DNA from: Oscillospiraceae bacterium
GTDB lineage: Bacteria; Bacillota; Clostridia; Oscillospirales; Acutalibacteraceae
Assembly: GCA_902802375.1 (NCBI GenBank)
Contig: CADCLS010000002.1
Location: 63,210-127,209, forward strand
DNA: 64,000 bases
Reading direction: 5' to 3'
The translations under genes were made by a program, and so were the position numbers. This document shows, one piece after another, positions 1 to 24,470 of this stretch (the first letter of the stretch is position 1; each line of letters begins with the position of its first letter). The notes below the pieces were generated by a model that was not told where the DNA came from, searched no databases, and was given only the letters and a program-made list of their open reading frames with translations.

Positions 1-186
1 TCCTGTTCTCGGTATCCATACCATTTCATTACTCTGTGTTTGTGTGACGGTTGTATTAATAGAAGTAGAAGAGGTATCAGTCTTAGCTTTGATTTCATCA
101 TCGAGTATCTTCAAATCATATCCTACAAATGACGCAAGCATTAGTAACGCTAATAATAGTGCAAATAGCATTTTAATAAGTTTCAT
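1..186 (-). CDS. hypothetical secreted protein, N-terminal fragment (gene continues past window start)
   Basis: ATG at 186 with GGAGG 5 nt upstream. Translation MKLIKMLFALLLALLMLASFVGYDLKILDDE... has a signal-peptide-like N-terminus followed by a Thr/Ser-rich stretch. The frame stays open to position 1. Confidence 0.5.
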   Translation of the reverse strand, partial: MKLIKMLFALLLALLMLASFVGYDLKILDDEIKAKTDTSSTSINTTVTQTQSNEMVWIPRTG

Positions 187-287
187 AATTACCTCCACCA
201 TTTAATTTTTATATTGACAGTTTTATTCTACATTCTTATGTGTGTCGAATTTTGTACTTATCGAGTGTAAGCCTTTAATTTTTTGCA

Positions 288-473
288 TAAAAAAGTGCGC
301 CAGCCGAAGCTGACGCACAAAAAACGCATAACTCCAACTGTCGCCAAACAATTATCTCAGTAATTCTCACATTAAGAATGCTGAAATAGAAGTATGCATT
401 TTTATCGGGAGATAAAAAGCATCCTTGTAATGTGAGAAATTTGAGATTTAATTTTTTGAGATAATTATTTGGC
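288..473 (-). ncRNA. candidate structured small RNA, unit A (family not recognised)
   Basis: Begins ~7 nt after the promoter at 480..508 and ends at hairpin GUGCGUCAGC-UUCG-GCUGGCGCAC (318..295) plus a U-run. 5' GCCAAAUAAUUAUCUCA pairs with 3' UGAGAUAAUUGUUUGGC. Inner stem is UUCUCACAUUA/UAAUGUGAGAA and the apical hairpin is UUUUUAUC-UCCC-GAUAAAAA. No ORF is conserved with unit B. Confidence 0.6.
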
Positions 474-479
474 ACACTT

Positions 480-508
480 ATTTTACCATTTAATAATCAA
501 ATAGTCAA
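480..508 (-). promoter_or_regulatory. sigma-A type promoter of RNA unit A
   Basis: Minus strand reads TTGACT (508..503), a 17-nt spacer, then TAAAAT (485..480). Confidence 0.6.
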
Positions 509-513
509 TAAAT

Positions 514-690
514 AAAAAAAGTGCGCCAGCCGAAGCTGACGCACAAAAAACGCATAACTCCAACTGTCGCCAAACAATTACACAATCTATTACAAAGAAC
601 AGAATGTTATAGAGTTTGCGTTTTTATCAAAAGATAAAATCGCAATTCTGTTCTTCAAAAGTATAGTATTAAATTGTGTAATTATTTGGC
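514..690 (-). ncRNA. candidate structured small RNA, unit B (paralogue of unit A)
   Basis: Has the same 5' 12 nt, the same ~65-nt 3' tail and an identical terminator hairpin (544..521) as unit A. Closing stem is GCCAAAUAAUUACACAAU/AUUGUGUAAUUGUUUGGC, inner stem GAAGAACAGAAU/AUUCUGUUCUU, apical hairpin AUUUUAUC-UUUU-GAUAAAA. Confidence 0.6.
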
Positions 691-696
691 ACAGTA

Positions 697-725
697 ATTA
701 TAACATTTATAGTGATTATAGTCAA
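697..725 (-). promoter_or_regulatory. sigma-A type promoter of RNA unit B
   Basis: Minus strand reads TTGACT (725..720), a 17-nt spacer, then TATAAT (702..697). Confidence 0.65.
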
Positions 726-757
726 TAAAAAAACTCCGGTCATAATAGAACCGGAGT
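726..757 (-). terminator. intrinsic terminator after trxB
   Basis: Stem ACTCCGGT/ACCGGAGT (733..740 / 750..757), followed by a U7 run on the minus strand. Confidence 0.7.
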
Positions 758-767
758 TTATCGCAAT

Positions 768-1682
768 TTAACCCTTTATTTCGTTTACATATCTGCAAGC
801 GGCAAGGGCTGATACTGTTCCGTCCGCCGCGGCTGTAGTCACCTGCCGTACCGCTTTACTTCGGCAGTCGCCTGCAACGAATATGCCGGGCGTTTTGGTA
901 GTGCAGGATTCATCGGTATCAAAATATCCGTAAGAATTCAGCTCTGCAAGATTACCAAACGGTTCATTTTCGGGTATGAGACCTATTGCTACAAACATAC
1001 CGTCGGCAAGTATTTGCTTTACATCACCACCGATTTCGGCTTCAACACCTTTGAATTCGCCGTTTTCGGTTATAAGCTTTGTGATTTTAGTGCCTGTATA
1101 CTTAGTTACATTATCTCTTGAGAATAATAGCTTTTGTAAGCTTTCTTCACCCGTGAAATAATCAAGGTCTTGAAGAATTATTACCTGCTTGCATTTATCC
1201 GAAAGCAAAATTGCCTCTTGAAGCGCAGAGTTTCCGCCGCCTGCCATAATTACGGTTTTGTTTTTGTAAAAATCACCGTCACAAACTGCGCAGAAAGAAA
1301 TACCCTCGCCGATAAGCTCTTTTTCGCCGTCTAAACCTAAAAGTCTGTGCTTTACGCCGGTTGCGATGATTACGGATATGCATTCATAAGCGCCGCCTTC
1401 TTCGGTTTTTACGATTTTTTTGTTGCCTTCGATTTCAATGCCTGAAACGGTTTCAAACTCAATATCGGCGCCTTGTTCGAGTATCTGTGACATCATTTTA
1501 TCTGCAAGCTCCGTACCGCTTATGCTCACGGTAGCAGGAAAATTTTCCACCTTTGGAGAATGGGTTATCTGACCGCCAAAGCCGTTTTTTTCAATTACTA
1601 AAACGGTTTTGCCGTTTCTTTTGGCATATAGCGCCGCCGTCATACCGGCAGGACCTCCGCCTACGACAATTATATCATACAT
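768..1682 (-). CDS. trxB: thioredoxin-disulfide reductase family flavoprotein
   Basis: MYDIIVVGGGPAGMTAALYA FAD-binding motif, redox CAVCDG motif, and a second GGGNSA dinucleotide motif. The start was moved to the ATG at 1682, which follows AAGGTGA. Confidence 0.85.
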   Translation of the reverse strand: MYDIIVVGGGPAGMTAALYAKRNGKTVLVIEKNGFGGQITHSPKVENFPATVSISGTELADKMMSQILEQGADIEFETVSGIEIEGNKKIVKTEEGGAYECISVIIATGVKHRLLGLDGEKELIGEGISFCAVCDGDFYKNKTVIMAGGGNSALQEAILLSDKCKQVIILQDLDYFTGEESLQKLLFSRDNVTKYTGTKITKLITENGEFKGVEAEIGGDVKQILADGMFVAIGLIPENEPFGNLAELNSYGYFDTDESCTTKTPGIFVAGDCRSKAVRQVTTAAADGTVSALAACRYVNEIKG

Positions 1683-1739
1683 AACTTTCACCTTACTGAA
1701 CGAGGGCAGAAACCGCAATAAGTTTCTGCCCTCGGTTTT

Positions 1740-4127
1740 TTATTTGCTCATTATATAGCCTTTTATGTCTGAAACGCCACGGTATTTTTCGAAGCCGTCA
1801 GCTGTGTTTACAACGAGCGTCGGAGCTTGCCGTATTCCGTATTGGGCTGAGAGCTCAGGCTCATCTTCTGCATTTATAGCCTGATACTTTATTCCGGCTT
1901 TATCAAGGAGTGCCACAGCCGCTTTGCAGTTAGGGCAGGTAGCGGTTTTGAAAAGCAGAATATCTGCGGTATCTGCGGTCGTAGGTGCGGCGTGTTCTTC
2001 ACAAGCACAAGGGCTTTCGTCGACAGGCGCCGGTTTAGGACCGGTATGAGTTAAATGTGAATTGCCTATATTGTATACCTTACGGTCTTTATACTCTTGT
2101 GCCTTACCGTCATTCCAGTTCTGTATCGGGCGGTAGTAACCGGTGATACGACTGTTTACTTCGGTTTTCTGACCGCATATCGGGCAGGTAAACTGCTCGC
2201 CTGTCAGGTATCCGTGGTCTTTACATACAGAATATGTTGGCGACATTGTGTAATAAGGAAGCTTGTAGTTCTCTGCAATTTTCCTCACGAGATTTGCCGC
2301 CGCTTTCCAGTCAGGCAATTTTTCGCCTAAGAATGCGTGGAAAACGGTGCCCGAGGTGTAAAGGGTTTGTAAATCATCCTGAATATCGAGAGCTGAGAAG
2401 ATGTCCTCCGTATAACCTACCGGCAGGTGTGAAGAATTGGTGTAATAGGGTGTTCCGTTCATATTAGCGGTGATTATATCCGGGAAGTCCTCTTTATCGT
2501 GCTTCGCAAAACGATAGGTTGTAGACTCTGCAGGGGTCGCCTCTAAGTTGTAAAGGTCGCCGTATTTTTCCTGATAGTCTGAAAGGCGCTCTCTCATATG
2601 GTTAAGCACATCACGCGCAAAACGCTGAACACGCTCGTCCGTAAGGTCGGCTTTTAGCCATTTCGCGTTAAGACCTACCTCGTTCATACCTATCAGACCG
2701 ATAGTTGAGAAGTGGTTTGCAAATGTGCCGAGATAACGCTTAGTATAGGGATATAGTCCCTGGTCAAGGAGGGTTGTTATGACCGTACGCTTGGTTTTAA
2801 GACTACGGGCAGATATATCCATAAGGTGGTCAAGACGGGCATAGAAATCCTTTTCATCCGTTGCCTGATAAGCTATACGCGGGAGATTTATCGTTACAAC
2901 GCCTATTGAACCTGTTGACTCACCTGAACCGAAGAAGCCGCCGGATTTTTTACGAAGCTCACGAAGGTCCAGACGAAGTCTGCAGCACATTGAACGGACA
3001 TCGCTCGGCTCCATATCGGAATTTATATAGTTTGAGAAATAAGGGGTGCCGTATTTTGCGGTCATTTCAAAGAGAAGTTTATTGTTCTCAGTCTCGGACC
3101 AATCAAAATCACGGGTAATTGAATAGGTCGGTATCGGGTACTGGAAGCCTCTGCCGTTAGCGTCACCCTCTATCATTATCTGGATGAACGCCTTGTTTAC
3201 CATATCCATTTCTTTTTGGCAGTCGCCATAGGTGAAGTCCATTTCCTTACCGCCGATTATAGCAGGAAGATTTTTAAGGTCGTTTGGAACTACCCAGTCA
3301 AGCGTAATATTCGAGAAAGGTGCCTGAGTACCCCAACGGCTCGGTGTATTTACGCCGTAAACGAATGACTGTATGCACTGCTTAACTTCCTTTTGAGTGA
3401 GGTTATCAACCTTAACAAAGGGAGCAAGATATGTGTCAAATGATGAGAACGCCTGAGCGCCTGCCCACTCGTTTTGCATAATGCCGAGGAAGTTAACCAT
3501 TTGATTGCAAAGGGTTGAAAGGTGATTGGCCGGTGAAGAGGTGATTTTGCCCGGAACACCGCCGAGACCCTCTTGAATTAACTGTTTAAGGCTCCAACCT
3601 GCGCAGTAGCCTGTAAGCATTGAAAGGTCGTGAAGGTGAATATCAGCATTCCTGTGGGCGTTCGCTATTTCCTCATCGTAAACTTCGCTGAGCCAATAGT
3701 TGGCGGTAATAGCGCCCGAATTTGAAAGAATAAGACCGCCTACGGAATAGGTAACAGTCGCATTCTCTTTAACGCGCCAGTCGTTAATCTTAAGATAGTT
3801 ATCAACTATATCCTTGTAATTAAGGAGAGCAGAATTAACATTACGGATTTTTTCTCTCTGCTTACGGTAGAGAATGTAGGCTTTTGCAACATCGGCATAA
3901 CCCGATTCGGAGAGCACTTTTTCTACGCTGTCCTGAATTGCTTCAACCGTAATTTTTCCGTCCTTTATTTTTGACTCGAAATCAGCGGTTACATGAAGAG
4001 CGATTAAATCAATAACGCTCGGATGTGACTGCTTGCCCTGTGCTTCAAATGCTTTGGAAATTGCGGCGCTTATTTTACCTATATTAAAATCGGTAACGCT
4101 GCCGTCTCTTTTAACTACCTGATACAT
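1740..4127 (-). CDS. nrdD: anaerobic ribonucleoside-triphosphate reductase (class III) with C-terminal CxxC redoxin-like extension
   Basis: N-terminal ATP-cone (MYQVVKRDGSVTDF), Cys-rich zinc site CPICG and glycyl-radical motif SRITGYYRP. A linker then leads to ILLFKTATCPNCKAAV..., which looks thioredoxin-fold-like. Start set at the ATG at 4127 after GAAGGGG. Confidence 0.9.
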   Translation of the reverse strand: MYQVVKRDGSVTDFNIGKISAAISKAFEAQGKQSHPSVIDLIALHVTADFESKIKDGKITVEAIQDSVEKVLSESGYADVAKAYILYRKQREKIRNVNSALLNYKDIVDNYLKINDWRVKENATVTYSVGGLILSNSGAITANYWLSEVYDEEIANAHRNADIHLHDLSMLTGYCAGWSLKQLIQEGLGGVPGKITSSPANHLSTLCNQMVNFLGIMQNEWAGAQAFSSFDTYLAPFVKVDNLTQKEVKQCIQSFVYGVNTPSRWGTQAPFSNITLDWVVPNDLKNLPAIIGGKEMDFTYGDCQKEMDMVNKAFIQIMIEGDANGRGFQYPIPTYSITRDFDWSETENNKLLFEMTAKYGTPYFSNYINSDMEPSDVRSMCCRLRLDLRELRKKSGGFFGSGESTGSIGVVTINLPRIAYQATDEKDFYARLDHLMDISARSLKTKRTVITTLLDQGLYPYTKRYLGTFANHFSTIGLIGMNEVGLNAKWLKADLTDERVQRFARDVLNHMRERLSDYQEKYGDLYNLEATPAESTTYRFAKHDKEDFPDIITANMNGTPYYTNSSHLPVGYTEDIFSALDIQDDLQTLYTSGTVFHAFLGEKLPDWKAAANLVRKIAENYKLPYYTMSPTYSVCKDHGYLTGEQFTCPICGQKTEVNSRITGYYRPIQNWNDGKAQEYKDRKVYNIGNSHLTHTGPKPAPVDESPCACEEHAAPTTADTADILLFKTATCPNCKAAVALLDKAGIKYQAINAEDEPELSAQYGIRQAPTLVVNTADGFEKYRGVSDIKGYIMSK

Positions 4128-4171
4128 ATAATATACCCCTTCATTAGATAATCTTATAGCGTGCATTCTGT

Positions 4172-4241
4172 ATTCTATCACGAACACAACATTTTGTCAA
4201 TATATTTAGAAATTTTTTTTATAAACACAATATATAGTTGT
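4172..4241 (-). promoter_or_regulatory. nrdD promoter with two NrdR-box-like palindromes (candidate)
   Basis: Minus strand reads TTGACA (4200..4195), 17 nt, TAGAAT (4177..4172). The palindrome ACAACTATATATTGTGT (4241..4225) resembles the NrdR box. A weaker box, ACAAAATGTTGTGT (4197..4184), lies between -35 and -10. Confidence 0.5.
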
Positions 4242-4934
4242 TTACTCCACTCCGCGAAGCTCGGTGTTCGGTATAAATTCACGGGCGATTTTAAGAAGCT
4301 TGTGCATTTTATCAAAGCTCGGAGAGGTGAGGTTGCCGTAAGGCACGCTGTCCCTATCAGTAAACCTCTGTAAGAAATATCGTTTTGCGCCTTTTATCAT
4401 ATCGCCTATCTTTACAAAGTCGGCTTCCTCGTGCAGTTCATTTACTACCGTTGTTCGGAACTCATAATCGGTATTTCCGTTCATAAGCAAAGAAATACTC
4501 TTTTTTATAACATCCAAGTCTACATTTTCCACACCGCAGGTCATCGCGTATTTTTCAGGCGAGTTTTTTATATCCATAGCCACATATTCCACATAGCCCG
4601 TATCAAGTATCTCTTTAAGATATTCGGGATGATAGCCGTTGGTATCAAGCTTTACTCGGTAGCCGGTGTCGTGTATCCTCTTAATAAGATTTATAAGGTC
4701 TTTGTTCATCAGCGGCTCGCCGCCTGTAATGGCAACACCCTCTAAAAGTCCCTTTCGGCTTTCGAGAAATGCTATAAGCTCGTCCTCATCCATAGTAGGC
4801 TTCAAAGTACCGTCAATAAGCTCAAAGTTATGGCAAAACGGACACCGAAAATCACATCCGCCTAAAAATATCGTGCAGGATACGCAACCCGGGAAATCAA
4901 GCAGCGTCATTTTTTGTATACCGTGTATTTTCAT
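4242..4934 (-). CDS. nrdG: anaerobic ribonucleotide reductase activating protein (radical SAM)
   Basis: CDFRCPFCHN CX3CX2C cluster motif; typical NrdG size; TAGGAGG RBS. Confidence 0.85.
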   Translation of the reverse strand: MKIHGIQKMTLLDFPGCVSCTIFLGGCDFRCPFCHNFELIDGTLKPTMDEDELIAFLESRKGLLEGVAITGGEPLMNKDLINLIKRIHDTGYRVKLDTNGYHPEYLKEILDTGYVEYVAMDIKNSPEKYAMTCGVENVDLDVIKKSISLLMNGNTDYEFRTTVVNELHEEADFVKIGDMIKGAKRYFLQRFTDRDSVPYGNLTSPSFDKMHKLLKIAREFIPNTELRGVE

Positions 4935-4942
4935 AAGTCCTC

Positions 4943-5884
4943 CTATACTGCCGAAAGAATGTGCAGATTTCTTATATAGTCGTCCGAAACTGAGTCATTT
5001 ACGGAATATGCATGCTTTTCAAGGTCGCCGCAAATGGCTTTGGTTAGGTTTTGCTCGGAAAGCTCATCTATAATATCCGCCGCAATACCCTCTATGGCAT
5101 AATATTTTTCTTCGGAGAGCTCGGGCGAATTATCAGTAGTTATAAGATATTCCATAATCTCGGCTTCAATTGAGAGCTTAGGTAAGCTTCTCAGAGCCTT
5201 AAAGCACCATTTGTAGTAAGGCTTGTATACGCGATTAAGTAAGAATATCGCTGAAATTGCGTGATTTACAAACTCATATACTGCAAGCTGTGCCGCCGCT
5301 ACTTCACCACGGTCAACACACCGTTTGTAGTTATACTGCCCGGACTGCGCCATTAAAAGCAGATTACCGGCGAGCTTTTTAAGGCGTATATCTTCGGGAA
5401 AGTATGAAAGATTTTCCCGTATTTTTGTAACCTCGCCGAAGGCATCGAAGAATATCTTGCCGTTTGTAGCCTCTGCGAGCGCCTGCTCAGGCGTGCTTAG
5501 CCAGCCGTTTACTGTGAGTATTCCGTCAGCCGAGCCGACCTTTTCAGTAAAGTACTCACTTGTTCTGAACACGCCGCGCCTTGCACCGCCGACGGGGGAG
5601 AGCATACCTCTTTTTACTCCCTCAAATTCTTTAGGAAGTTTAGAATAAGCTCTCTCAAGCAGAAAAGCTGTGCGTCGGTCTATTATACTTTCGTCAGGCA
5701 GAAAAATACAAAAGCCTGCCTCAAAATCGTGGTCGCGTGAAATACTGTCGTCAAACCCGAAGCACTCCGAGCCCGGTCCTAATATACCGCAGGCAAGTTT
5801 GTCTATTACTCCTGAGAATTCGCTTTCGAGCATAGGTTTCCCGAATTCACGAAAAAACTTTTGGGATAGCTCAATTCCTTTCAT
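4943..5884 (-). CDS. DUF4037-like (nucleotidyltransferase-associated) protein
   Basis: MKGIELSQKFFREFGKPML...GPGSECFGFDDSISRDHDF resembles the DUF4037 proteins of Clostridia as I recall them. Start moved to the ATG at 5884, which overlaps the upstream TPR gene by 14 nt. Confidence 0.55.
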   Translation of the reverse strand: MKGIELSQKFFREFGKPMLESEFSGVIDKLACGILGPGSECFGFDDSISRDHDFEAGFCIFLPDESIIDRRTAFLLERAYSKLPKEFEGVKRGMLSPVGGARRGVFRTSEYFTEKVGSADGILTVNGWLSTPEQALAEATNGKIFFDAFGEVTKIRENLSYFPEDIRLKKLAGNLLLMAQSGQYNYKRCVDRGEVAAAQLAVYEFVNHAISAIFLLNRVYKPYYKWCFKALRSLPKLSIEAEIMEYLITTDNSPELSEEKYYAIEGIAADIIDELSEQNLTKAICGDLEKHAYSVNDSVSDDYIRNLHILSAV

Positions 5885-6707
5885 ATATTTCCTTCGCTTT
5901 CCGTGTAAGTTCTTCCGCCGCGGCAAAATAGCCATAATATGAAAACGACGGTGCACATTTCTCGCACACAAAAGCATAATATCCGTCTTTCGGTACGCTT
6001 TCGGTATTTAGCAGGTCATATGCTTTGTCTAAAAGCTCAAAAGCTTTACCTTCCGCCGCTTCACTGCCCATACTTGCAACAAAAGTATCCGCCATATTAA
6101 GATAAGTAATTGCGCGCTCAAGTTCGCCGTTTTTCACCTTTTCCATACAACTTAAGGCTTTTTCGTAGTATGAAAGAGCCTCACTGTACCTGCCAAGGAA
6201 TGAAAGGGTCAGCGCCATATTGTTGTAAAGACCGCCGAGAAGGTCGTTTTCAGGTTCACTCATAGCTTCAAATGCCGCTTGCGCTTTCAAAAAGGTTTCA
6301 AGCGACTTTTCATTATCCCCGAAAGCGTTATAAGCGGTAGCTATATTTATATATGTAACTCCGGCGCTTCTGTCGCCCTCAAAGCCTAATTCCTTGAGTA
6401 ACTTAAAAGCCTTAGAGGCGTTTTCGTATGCACCCTTACGGTTGCCGGTTTTTCTGAAATGCCCTACAAGCTCATTCCTTATCATAAGCTCGCCTCGGGT
6501 ATCTTTTCCGAGTATTGCTTCGTTTAACCAATATAAAAGATGCCTTTCGGCGCCTGTATAATCGTTTTTGCCCATATATTCGTTCATTTTATCGATTATG
6601 CGCCCCTGCGGCACGCTTTTTACCTCAGGTGTCACGCCGTAAGCCTCCTCGCACAGCAGACATCTCGGCTCGGCATAATCTTCGGGTTTTAAGTAGCTGT
6701 CGTTCAT
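5871..6707 (-). CDS. tetratricopeptide-repeat protein
   Basis: Repeated A/Y/L-rich helical TPR-like units (e.g. ALSYYEKAL, ATAYNAFGD). RBS is GGAGAA. Confidence 0.6.
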   Translation of the reverse strand: MNDSYLKPEDYAEPRCLLCEEAYGVTPEVKSVPQGRIIDKMNEYMGKNDYTGAERHLLYWLNEAILGKDTRGELMIRNELVGHFRKTGNRKGAYENASKAFKLLKELGFEGDRSAGVTYINIATAYNAFGDNEKSLETFLKAQAAFEAMSEPENDLLGGLYNNMALTLSFLGRYSEALSYYEKALSCMEKVKNGELERAITYLNMADTFVASMGSEAAEGKAFELLDKAYDLLNTESVPKDGYYAFVCEKCAPSFSYYGYFAAAEELTRKAKEIYERN

Positions 6708-24231: not shown

Positions 24232-24464
24232 AAAAAAATAAACTTCGTCCCAATATAGGGACGAAGTAATTCTAATACTCCGCGGTTCCACCCGCATTCC
24301 GAATAAATCCGGCACTTAAAAGCTTTAACGGAGCTTACCCGTCCGTGTTTTTTACCCACGGCACTCAAAGGTGGTGTTCATTTTTCGGTAAATACGCCGC
24401 TTTCACCTGCCGGCGCTCGCTTTAATTTACATAAGAAAAACTACTGTCCTTCTCAACGCTTTGT
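24232..24464 (-). promoter_or_regulatory. T-box leader (tentative Thr ACC specifier) with terminator/antiterminator
   Basis: Minus strand shows a Stem I start (GAGAAGGACAGUAG), GGUGAAAG in the distal region, the T-box sequence AAUGCGGGUGGAACCGCGG (24298..24280), and terminator CUUCGUCCC-loop-GGGACGAAG plus a U-run (24266..24232). An ACC-A in the predicted specifier region is consistent with Thr. Confidence 0.8.
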
Positions 24465-24470
24465 ATAAGT

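Follow-up and report, generated by a model that had tools for sequence, protein, structure and literature searches.

The left end of a 64,000-nucleotide (nt) stretch of contig CADCLS010000002.1 from an Oscillospiraceae bacterium, hereafter the window, raises the question of what is made by two minus-strand units, B (690->514) and A (473->288), that lie there one after the other. An earlier note on this DNA had suggested that they encode a duplicated trans-acting small RNA, or a guide-like RNA whose variable stem carries specificity. Our analysis suggests instead that each unit is likely to be a complete mRNA 5' leader acting as a bistable, riboswitch-like transcription attenuator, and that the tandem pair precedes a gene for a small secreted or membrane-anchored protein, which is Ltp-like by our reading.

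Anatomy of the two units

Unit B is preceded by a sigma-70-type promoter-like sequence TTGACT-17-TATAAT at 725->697 (11/12 match) and unit A by TTGACT-17-TAAAAT at 508->480 (10/12 match); both have a TG directly 5' of the -10 element and are among the top-scoring promoter-like sites of the first kilobase of the window. The two terminators are the same, GTGCGTCAGC-TTCG-GCTGGCGCAC followed by a T-run (544->521 and 318->295), and would form a 10-bp stem with a UUCG loop. The units share their first 12 nt and their last ~65 nt exactly, and their interior arms are unrelated. Each unit folds into one long imperfect hairpin (122-131 nt) followed by an unpaired tail and then the terminator, with a predicted energy of -71.3 kcal/mol for unit B (z = -10.6) and -65.1 kcal/mol for unit A (z = -8.7); none of 200 shuffled sequences was as stable in either case, and the sense-strand fold is ~11-16 kcal/mol more stable than the antisense fold. 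Both hairpins end in an apical UUUU(U)AUC-N4-GAUAAAA(A) stem-loop, next to which lies a pyrimidine-rich bulge on the 3' strand. Thus, the promoters, identical terminators, shared ends, differing interiors, apical hairpin and 3' bulge described in the earlier note are all present where it placed them. The C-rich seed loop that it saw in the UCCC of unit A does not hold up, as the apical loop is not conserved, being UUUU in unit B and of other sequences in homologues.

The long hairpin, which we term the rod, comprises stems P1 and P2 and the apical hairpin P3; segment 2 denotes the pyrimidine-rich bulge strand and segment 3 the tail that follows the rod. The elements of unit B, from 5' to 3' of the RNA after the promoter and the complete leader, are:

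697..725, minus strand: promoter; predicted RNA start at G690, ~7 nt further on
514..690, minus strand: complete leader RNA of 177 nt, with rod hairpin, tail and terminator (from the fold and the 3'-module profile, E = 5e-15)
670..690, minus strand: 5' arm of P1 (GCCAAAUAAUUACACAAUUUA), partner at 569-589 (from the fold and P1 covariation in the family)
657..669, minus strand: asymmetric A/U-rich 5' bulge between P1 and P2, the proposed hinge (from the fold)
641..656, minus strand: 5' arm of P2, partner at 595-605, its inner end pairing with CGCA of segment 2 (from the fold)
622..639, minus strand: apical hairpin P3 (UUUUAUC-UUUU-GAUAAAA), which holds the conserved A-run (from the fold and family columns)
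611..621, minus strand: segment 2 (ACGCAAACUCU), the 3' bulge strand, which can pair with the tail as a pseudoknot or anti-antiterminator (duplex -11.9 kcal/mol)
569..589, minus strand: 3' arm of P1, with the 3' end UUUGGC (from the fold and covariation)
551..568, minus strand: linker GACAGUU and segment 3 (GGAGUUAUGCG), the switching strand common to pseudoknot and antiterminator (from pairing tests)
545..550, minus strand: U6 tract, the putative antiterminator loop, complementary to the A5 tract of P3 (from pairing energies)
514..544, minus strand: intrinsic terminator (10-bp stem, UUCG loop) and U-run, its 5' arm and loop being the other half of the antiterminator (from the terminator alignment)

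Those of unit A are:

480..508, minus strand: promoter, TTGACT-17-TAAAAT, 10/12
288..473, minus strand: complete leader RNA of 186 nt (from the fold and the 3'-module profile, E = 5e-15)
457..473, minus strand: 5' arm of P1, partner at 343-359 (from the fold)
439..456, minus strand: 18-nt 5' bulge, the proposed hinge (from the fold)
419..438, minus strand: 5' arm of P2, partner at 364-381 (from the fold)
399..418, minus strand: apical hairpin P3 (UUUUUAUC-UCCC-GAUAAAAA) (from the fold)
388..398, minus strand: segment 2 (UGCAUACUUCU), pseudoknot strand in the 3' bulge (duplex -9.8 kcal/mol)
343..381, minus strand: 3' arms of P2 and P1 (from the fold)
325..342, minus strand: linker GACAGUU and segment 3 (GGAGUUAUGCG) (from pairing energies)
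289..324, minus strand: U6 tract, terminator hairpin (318->295) and U-run (from pairing energies)

A 66-aa (amino acid) open reading frame (ORF) with a GTG start that runs across unit A (275-475, minus strand) is absent from homologues and is very likely spurious. The GGAG of the tail was also considered as a Shine-Dalgarno (SD) sequence serving an AUG, GUG or UUG start, and was rejected: the spacing is only 1-2 nt, and homologues have GAGC, GGGC or GAAG in place of GGAG.

A family of related RNAs in uncultured Clostridia

Members of the family were gathered by profile hidden Markov model searches of the conserved modules. An exact 18-nt tail pattern matched 45 genome loci, ~33 of which are full homologues; these come from metagenome-assembled genomes of uncultured Clostridia, Oscillospiraceae, Ruminococcaceae and 'Eubacterium' from the human gut, the rumen and other animal guts, with up to four copies per genome. 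A second, independent pattern (A-run plus P1 base) matched 115 stretches of gut and rumen metagenomes, and profile searches of all fetched stretches yielded 139 units with 114 distinct hairpins. The 3'-module profile recovered units A and B (E = 5e-15 each) and no further copy in the window. Nearly all distinct members (111/114) begin with GCCAAA, a proportion that is partly due to ascertainment, as the search patterns contained TTGGCGACAG. A promoter of the form TTGAY, 15-19 nt, TAnnnT, with its 3' end 4-10 nt from the RNA start, precedes 74/111. Two classes can be distinguished, namely class 1, the type in the window, with a hairpin of ~105-135 nt, and class 2, with a hairpin of ~145-175 nt, an additional inserted hairpin, the A5 tract in the P3 loop and a tail shorter by one A. 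Tandem doublets like that of the window occur at 3/135 loci, with a period of 212-224 nt.

Both window units display the features of the family. They contain an A5 tract followed by YGC, then a pyrimidine-rich strand that can pair with the tail (AAAAACGCAAACUCU in unit B, AAAAAUGCAUACUUCU in unit A), a 5' GCCAAA that closes a long P1 with a 3' UUUGGC followed by GACAG, and a tail complementary to the 5' arm and loop of the terminator, with a U5-6 spacer and an intrinsic terminator. A same-strand SD and ORF follow after the terminator (ORF start at 186, a gap of 102 nt).

When the whole window was scanned with Rfam 15 (4227 models) at gathering thresholds, the only hit was a T-box leader (RF00230) at 24254-24465 on the minus strand (109.3 bits, E = 3e-23), which thus serves as a positive control for the scan. 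At E <= 10 the best scores in the locus (200-800) were 11.8-22.3 bits against cut-offs of 39-376, and a scan of 15 homologue loci returned tmRNA, tRNA and 5S only, with nothing on the leader element; nor did literature searches turn up a description of it. Hence, consistent with the earlier note, which had recognized no named RNA family here, the leaders appear to define an undescribed family matched by no Rfam 15 model. BLAST searches gave no plasmid match and a single phage match, to an 'unverified bacteriophage' scaffold on which a divergent member precedes a DNA methyltransferase-like gene. Three scans of IMG/VR returned 0, 25 and 49 stretches, all of them chance matches except two contig-end fragments, which argues that the family is not a phage element.

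Certain atypical members deserve separate mention. The member on the phage-annotated scaffold (L167, MT835503.1, 339-531, plus strand; from human faeces) is a divergent class-2 representative with a different P1 base (GUCACACGAAC/GUUCGUGUGAC) and a linker AACG in place of GACAG. The protein encoded 44 nt downstream of it, of 382 aa, has an NPPF motif and was recognized by eye as DNA methyltransferase-like; next comes a 369-aa protein with an HNH-like motif at its end. This member implies that the family is wider than our search patterns and is not confined to envelope genes. At L004:5800-5900 (plus strand) there is a natural shortened leader, in which a promoter-like TTGACT...TGATAAAAAT runs directly into TGTTTGGCGACAG, the tail and the terminator, with neither rod nor segment 2; under the switch model proposed below it should form the antiterminator constitutively. 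At L039:4856-5115 (minus strand) the 3' arm of the terminator is missing, unrelated sequence standing in its place, and a different hairpin with a U-run lies beyond; this copy may carry an insertion or be decayed. Some leaders lie just 3' of stable RNA genes, such as tmRNA (L006:1-353) or 5S rRNA and tRNA (L013:1-176).

Stem covariation and strand specificity

A full-unit MAFFT alignment misaligned the variable stems and was replaced by end-anchored segments and an alignment of the 3' domain. Over 95 distinct members, the end-anchored and unfitted columns of P1 are 95% paired, with changes on both sides at 10/16 pairs; registers slid by 1-3 columns fall to 40-50%, and none of 500 shuffles reached any of the observed measures. 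The terminator shows the same behavior, with 97.9% of cells paired and double changes at 8/10 pairs. The compensatory changes that the earlier note had read from two copies are thus borne out across the family. At pair 7 of P1, 55 sequences have U-G and 40 have C-G, and the sense fold is more stable than the antisense fold in 114/114 members (means -70.0 versus -50.5 kcal/mol). Taken together, these two observations indicate that the conserved structure is one of RNA, on this strand, as the note had also held for units with their own promoters and terminators. The variable stems are best viewed as ordinary helix covariation within a long rod, with no sign of a guide. The distal part of P1 is often CACA/UGUG (e.g. 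UCACAA...UUGUGA) while the remainder of P1 varies freely, which may reflect a weak sequence preference or a contact with a protein or a tertiary element.

Position before genes and the nature of the regulon

In homologues the U-run of the terminator leads into an SD sequence and a start codon, the median gap from terminator to start codon being 21 nt. An SD with an ORF of at least 50 aa starts within 60 nt of the terminator in 78/106 testable units, as against 5/106 in the divergent direction and 14/106 at random positions. The 95 distinct downstream proteins are heterogeneous and have a strong bias to the cell envelope, most of them being secreted or membrane proteins. They include BspA-type LRR proteins (11), zinc-ribbon/DZR membrane proteins, and proteins with DUF6273, collagen repeats, CHAP, subtilase (S8), M23, Ltp, TM2 or SHOCT domains. 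An N-terminal hydrophobic segment is found in 55/95 of them versus 139/757 control ORFs from the same loci. Near-identical leaders stand before different genes (L013, L041), and related genes stand behind different leaders (L008, L041).

Two alternative pairings of the tail

RNAalifold, when run on a crude alignment, paired the tail CAGUUGGAGUUAUGCGU unprompted with GUGCGUAGCUUCGGCUG over 17 consecutive pairs, the latter strand taking in the 5' arm and loop of the terminator together with the start of its 3' arm. The predicted energy of this putative antiterminator is -16.3 kcal/mol in both window units, versus -19.2 kcal/mol for the terminator. Across 15 columns in the 95 distinct 3' domains 93.9% of cells are paired, versus 22-51% in slid registers, and tails pair better with their own partners than with permuted ones (z = -5.0; 0/5000 permutations). 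Substitutions in this helix are mostly one-sided and compatible with wobble pairing, and the same columns remain paired in the terminator. For instance, column 37 (G or A) lies opposite U in both helices, and a U->C change at column 31, opposite G20, goes with a compensating A->G in the terminator.

The same tail is also complementary to segment 2: GCAUA-CUCU faces GGAG-U-UAUGC, for example, and in class 2 GCAAAUUCC and GGAGUUUGC match perfectly over 9 bp. Duplexes of bulges with their own tails have a mean energy of -11.4 kcal/mol, versus -10.0 for permuted partners (z = -7.6; 0/5000) and -3.4 for the reversed bulge, and one anchored position changes from U-A (32 sequences) to A-U (15 sequences) between the two classes. 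Divergent members retain antiterminator, pseudoknot and terminator with different sequences. Examples of their bulge and tail strands are:

L144: UACUUCA / UGAAGUA
L047: GCUUC / GAAGC
L068: GCCUGUUC / GGGGCAGGC
L029, second copy: CUCA / UGAG
L003, second copy: GGCUCU / GGAGC, and also GCGAAA / UUUCGC at the P1 base

Certain homopolymeric tracts accompany these pairings. The A-run adjoining segment 2 is exactly 5 nt from the 10th to the 90th percentile and is accompanied in ~95% of members by an upstream U-run of at least 5, which is the 5' strand of P3 in class 1 and the CCCUUUUU tract in class 2; a further U5-6 tract lies between tail and terminator. Extension of the pseudoknot through A5:U5 brings its mean energy to -15.5 kcal/mol. 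Before any loop penalty, the means for local P3 plus antiterminator (~-29.5 kcal/mol) and for extended pseudoknot plus terminator (~-30.2 kcal/mol) are close, and by these estimates the two states would be nearly isoenergetic, as expected of a switch. On inspection of the sequences, the strand directly 5' of P3 can in many members also pair with segment 2.

The proposed attenuation mechanism and its weak points

The mutually exclusive helices formed by the tail, the 3' bulge and the terminator are the signature of a cis-acting attenuator. Transcription is predicted to start at GCCAAA, and the first ~120-130 nt would fold into the rod, with P1, the asymmetric A/U-rich bulge, P2 and the apical U5/A5 hairpin P3. 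Segment 2 would follow just 3' of P3 and, after the rod, the 7-nt linker, segment 3, the U5-6 tract and the terminator. In the ON state the tail would pair with the 5' arm and loop of the terminator, and this antiterminator would permit read-through. In the OFF state the tail would instead pair with segment 2 as a long-range pseudoknot, the anti-antiterminator, so that the terminator forms and an RNA of ~180 nt is released. In many members segment 2 might also be held by the strand just upstream as an extended P3, giving a five-segment cascade of the form 1:2 / 2:3 / 3:4 / 4:5. Such a scheme presupposes that the pseudoknot forms in cis and drives termination, and that the balance responds to some signal. 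The envelope regulon is heterogeneous, which speaks against a biosynthetic metabolite as the signal and would suit a second messenger, a global RNA-binding protein or an ion; we would assign roughly a third of the weight to a small molecule such as a second messenger, another third to a protein, and the rest to ions, kinetics or RNA-RNA contact. The rod, beginning at +1, probably also protects the read-through mRNA from 5'-end-dependent decay.

The dimensions of the rod bear directly on this scheme. It measures ~36 bp (P1 median 17 bp, P2 19 bp), its 3' strand from bulge to base is 38 nt long (36-42), and the linker from the rod base to segment 3 is 7 nt. Pairing of segments 2 and 3 therefore calls either for a fold-back in cis at the roughly central bulge or for an antiparallel arrangement of molecules, and we would prefer the fold-back.

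Several observations weigh against this interpretation. The promoters, the start site and termination are themselves predictions. In the column test the 93.9% pairing of the antiterminator compares with 93.3% for shuffled partners, with double changes in 10 cells; as shuffled partners pair equally well, the support for this helix amounts to conserved, wobble-tolerant complementarity and not to classical covariation. The comparisons of own with permuted partners, for either pairing of the tail, take no account of kinship between the sequences. Given a ~36-bp rod and a 7-nt linker, a pseudoknot in cis needs a fold of nearly 180 degrees at the bulge. The lengths of P1 and P2 are not matched: their correlation is negative (rho = -0.61), with a sum that varies less than either and is conserved, where a symmetric fold-back would have led one to expect a positive one. 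The motif of the 5' bulge is weakly conserved (AAUA in 21/85), and the invariance of GCGACAG is in part ascertainment, both search patterns having fixed part of the RNA. Few nucleotides are conserved outside helices, unlike in most metabolite aptamers, which leaves little for a classical pocket. Finally, the gap of 102 nt between the terminator of unit A and the ORF start at 186 is long against the family median of 21 nt. An AAUAU motif in the 5' bulge, which looked conserved by eye, was also set aside as weak when counted.

Alternative interpretations

If the ~180-nt terminated transcripts were themselves the product, i.e. trans-acting small RNAs, the nearby ORFs would be incidental or the RNAs would have a dual function. 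Strong promoters and strong, conserved terminators imply that such RNAs should accumulate, segments 2 and 3 would both be free in them, and several copies exist per genome. Yet the SD and ORF within 60 nt of the terminator in 78/106 units leave too little space for a further promoter, the helices in cis account fully for the only single strands that are conserved, and the apical loop is not conserved. Moreover, the rest of the window had no matches to the arms beyond chance, and their complementarity to the mRNA that follows them did not convincingly exceed expectation (89 and 282 of 2000 permutations equalled it), and we accordingly regard this option as unlikely. The accumulated leaders could act in another way, by capturing the nascent tail through intermolecular pairing of segments 2 and 3 and so causing termination, a regulon-wide negative feedback by dimerization. 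A straight rod of ~36 bp is too long to be bridged by a 7-nt linker, the rod as a whole is conserved in length (3' strand 36-42 nt), as antiparallel side-by-side rods would need, and tails are nearly identical among the copies of one genome. This is nonetheless a purely geometric argument, to which the mid-rod bulge (P1 17, P2 19 bp) offers the answer of a fold-back in cis, and capture of nascent RNA in trans would be slow relative to antiterminator folding; we consider it decidedly unlikely. A simpler view dispenses with regulation, the rod being a 5' stabilizer and the terminator a fixed, leaky attenuator for low expression, with the alternative helices as by-products. A helix starting at +1 is a known mRNA stabilizer in Firmicutes, the rod has no evident ligand-like pocket and the regulon is heterogeneous. 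This view, which we also think improbable, fails to explain why divergent members keep the complementarity of the tail both to the terminator arm and loop and to the bulge, and why the states are nearly isoenergetic.

The guide RNA of an RNA-guided system, with specificity in the variable stem, is suggested by conserved ends around a variable middle and by several differing copies per genome. The variable part is, however, paired to itself, no effector gene lies nearby, and the arms have no matches of the kind sought above; together with near-identical leaders before different genes and related genes behind different leaders, this renders a guide very improbable. Hence, neither the trans-acting nor the guide reading of the earlier note finds support in the arms, which show ordinary covariation. 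Least probable of all, to the point of being negligible, is a DNA-level element, i.e. a palindromic repeat, a miniature inverted-repeat transposable element (MITE), an integron attC-like site or an invertible segment. In its favor, the units have inverted repeats at their ends (GCCAAAUAAUUA / UAAUUGUUUGGC) and an interior that is largely palindromic, and GTTTGGC differs from the attC R' consensus GTTRRRY at a single position. Against this, G-U pairs render the fold strand-specific (the antisense is ~20 kcal/mol weaker, in 114/114), the orientation is always fixed relative to promoter, terminator and downstream ORF, the pairings of the tail fall outside the palindrome, plasmids gave no match and viral collections almost none, and only two copies occur in the 64-kb window. 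A MITE or dispersed repeat in particular was rejected on the grounds that the interiors of copies are unrelated while their pairing is kept, that orientation is fixed relative to the ORF and that there are just two copies in 64 kb. Integron attC sites are imperfect palindromes of 57-141 nt with R'' RYYYAAC and R' GTTRRRY, one per cassette, near an integron integrase. In the leaders GCCAAAT and GTTTGGC are off consensus, the units are adjacent without a cassette between them, they have a promoter and a terminator and are strand-specific through G-U pairs, and no integrase was found among the leader neighbors examined. The palindrome or MITE-like repeat that the earlier note had kept in reserve can thus be set aside.

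Returning to the attenuator, a bolder version can be offered tentatively, as a possibility of rather low probability. The leader could be a new riboswitch class or RNA-sensing attenuator, in which the ~36-bp rod folds back into a U shape, is clamped by the pseudoknot beside a U-A-U-rich tract (one A5 and two U5 conserved) and senses a cellular signal such as a cyclic dinucleotide, thereby co-ordinately shutting off a regulon of rapidly evolving membrane, adhesin-like and surface proteins in the uncultured Clostridia of gut and rumen. In a more exotic variant the clamp would form between molecules, with terminated leaders feeding back on nascent ones.

Comparison with known regulatory RNAs

The leaders appear to be a new family within a known kind, the cis-acting terminator/antiterminator leaders, and they belong to none of the named families for which membership could be tested. 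A close mechanistic parallel would be with the pyr attenuators of Bacillus subtilis (PyrR), in which anti-antiterminator, antiterminator and terminator are likewise mutually exclusive in one leader, an upstream helix sequesters the 5' strand of the antiterminator, and several attenuators may lie in series. However, the leaders lack the PyrR binding loop (Rfam PyrR model 17.6 bits versus a cut-off of 54), their anti-antiterminator is a long-range pairing across a ~36-bp rod as opposed to a local stem-loop, and they control envelope proteins rather than pyrimidine synthesis. CsrA, ANTAR, PyrR, TRAP and RAT motifs were looked for by eye and none was recognized; for PyrR alone this is backed by the Rfam search, with no significant hit. 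In Firmicutes pseudoknot riboswitches such as preQ1-I, a pseudoknot with the 3' strand similarly decides between terminator and antiterminator. The c-di-GMP-I/II riboswitches of Clostridia also occur in several copies per genome before adhesin-like or surface-protein genes, and tandem riboswitches are known. Unlike these, the leader matches no Rfam riboswitch model and has a long variable rod with few conserved unpaired nucleotides. The M-box (Mg2+) riboswitch, where side-by-side compaction of helices hides the antiterminator strand and favors the terminator, as folding back the rod would do in the leader, is comparable in concept only, as the fold of the leader is unrelated, gives no Rfam hit and has no association with Mg2+ transporters. 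T-boxes are also Firmicute leaders with a terminator/antiterminator switch, many copies per genome and occasional tandem arrangement, but the leader has neither specifier loop nor T-box sequence nor tRNA-acceptor bulge, and RF00230 gave no hit at 288-725 in the same scan that scored 109.3 bits at 24254-24465. Lastly, 6S RNA resembles the leader in its ~180 nt and its rod-like imperfect hairpin, but the leader has no large two-sided central bubble, has its own terminator with an ORF directly downstream, and is not hit at the locus by RF00013 or RF01685 at E <= 10.

If the attenuator interpretation holds, the surface and secreted proteins of abundant, uncultured Clostridia of gut and rumen would include a regulon defined by a single RNA element; its products (BspA-type LRR, collagen-like, CHAP, M23, S8 and zinc-ribbon membrane proteins) are the likeliest mediators of contact with host, phage and neighboring cells. 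The leader would then provide a handle on what these Clostridia sense, since the RNA itself can be used to look for its ligand or protein partner. For engineering, it is a compact and well-defined terminator/antiterminator platform, and its conserved rod length and long-range pseudoknot pose a clear structural question.

Genomic neighborhood of the window units

The neighbors of the leaders in the window include nrdD, nrdG, a trxB-like gene, aspartokinase and similar genes. The features flanking the leaders are:

731..759 (759->731), minus strand: predicted terminator hairpin of the thioredoxin-reductase-like gene (768-1718) upstream of the leaders
1..186, minus strand: start of the gene that follows the tandem leaders and runs off the edge of the window; its complete sequence is taken from the identical contig L165:17896-18189

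The first of these would isolate the leaders from upstream transcription. The downstream gene, as complete on the identical contig, is monocistronic, has its own terminator and encodes a 97-aa protein with an N-terminal hydrophobic anchor or signal followed by VWIPRTGVKYHRNASC...CKKCY (C-terminal module VWIPRTGVKYH...CKKCY). We take it to be Ltp-like from this motif, as recognized by eye, with no Pfam hit recorded.

At 4943-5977 and 5871-6707 (minus strand) a DUF4037 ORF and a TPR ORF overlap by ~100 nt in the longest-ORF list. In the gene calls of the identical contig the DUF4037 product is shorter (313 aa), and hence the longest-ORF start is probably wrong. NrdG (4242-4934) lies upstream of NrdD (1740-4187, minus strand), which combines ATP-cone and NRDD domains with a C-terminal glutaredoxin/thioredoxin-like domain and is directly followed by the thioredoxin-reductase-like flavoprotein (768-1718, minus strand). 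From its domain architecture, this fusion together with the adjoining flavoprotein looks like a self-contained reductant supply for the class III ribonucleotide reductase.

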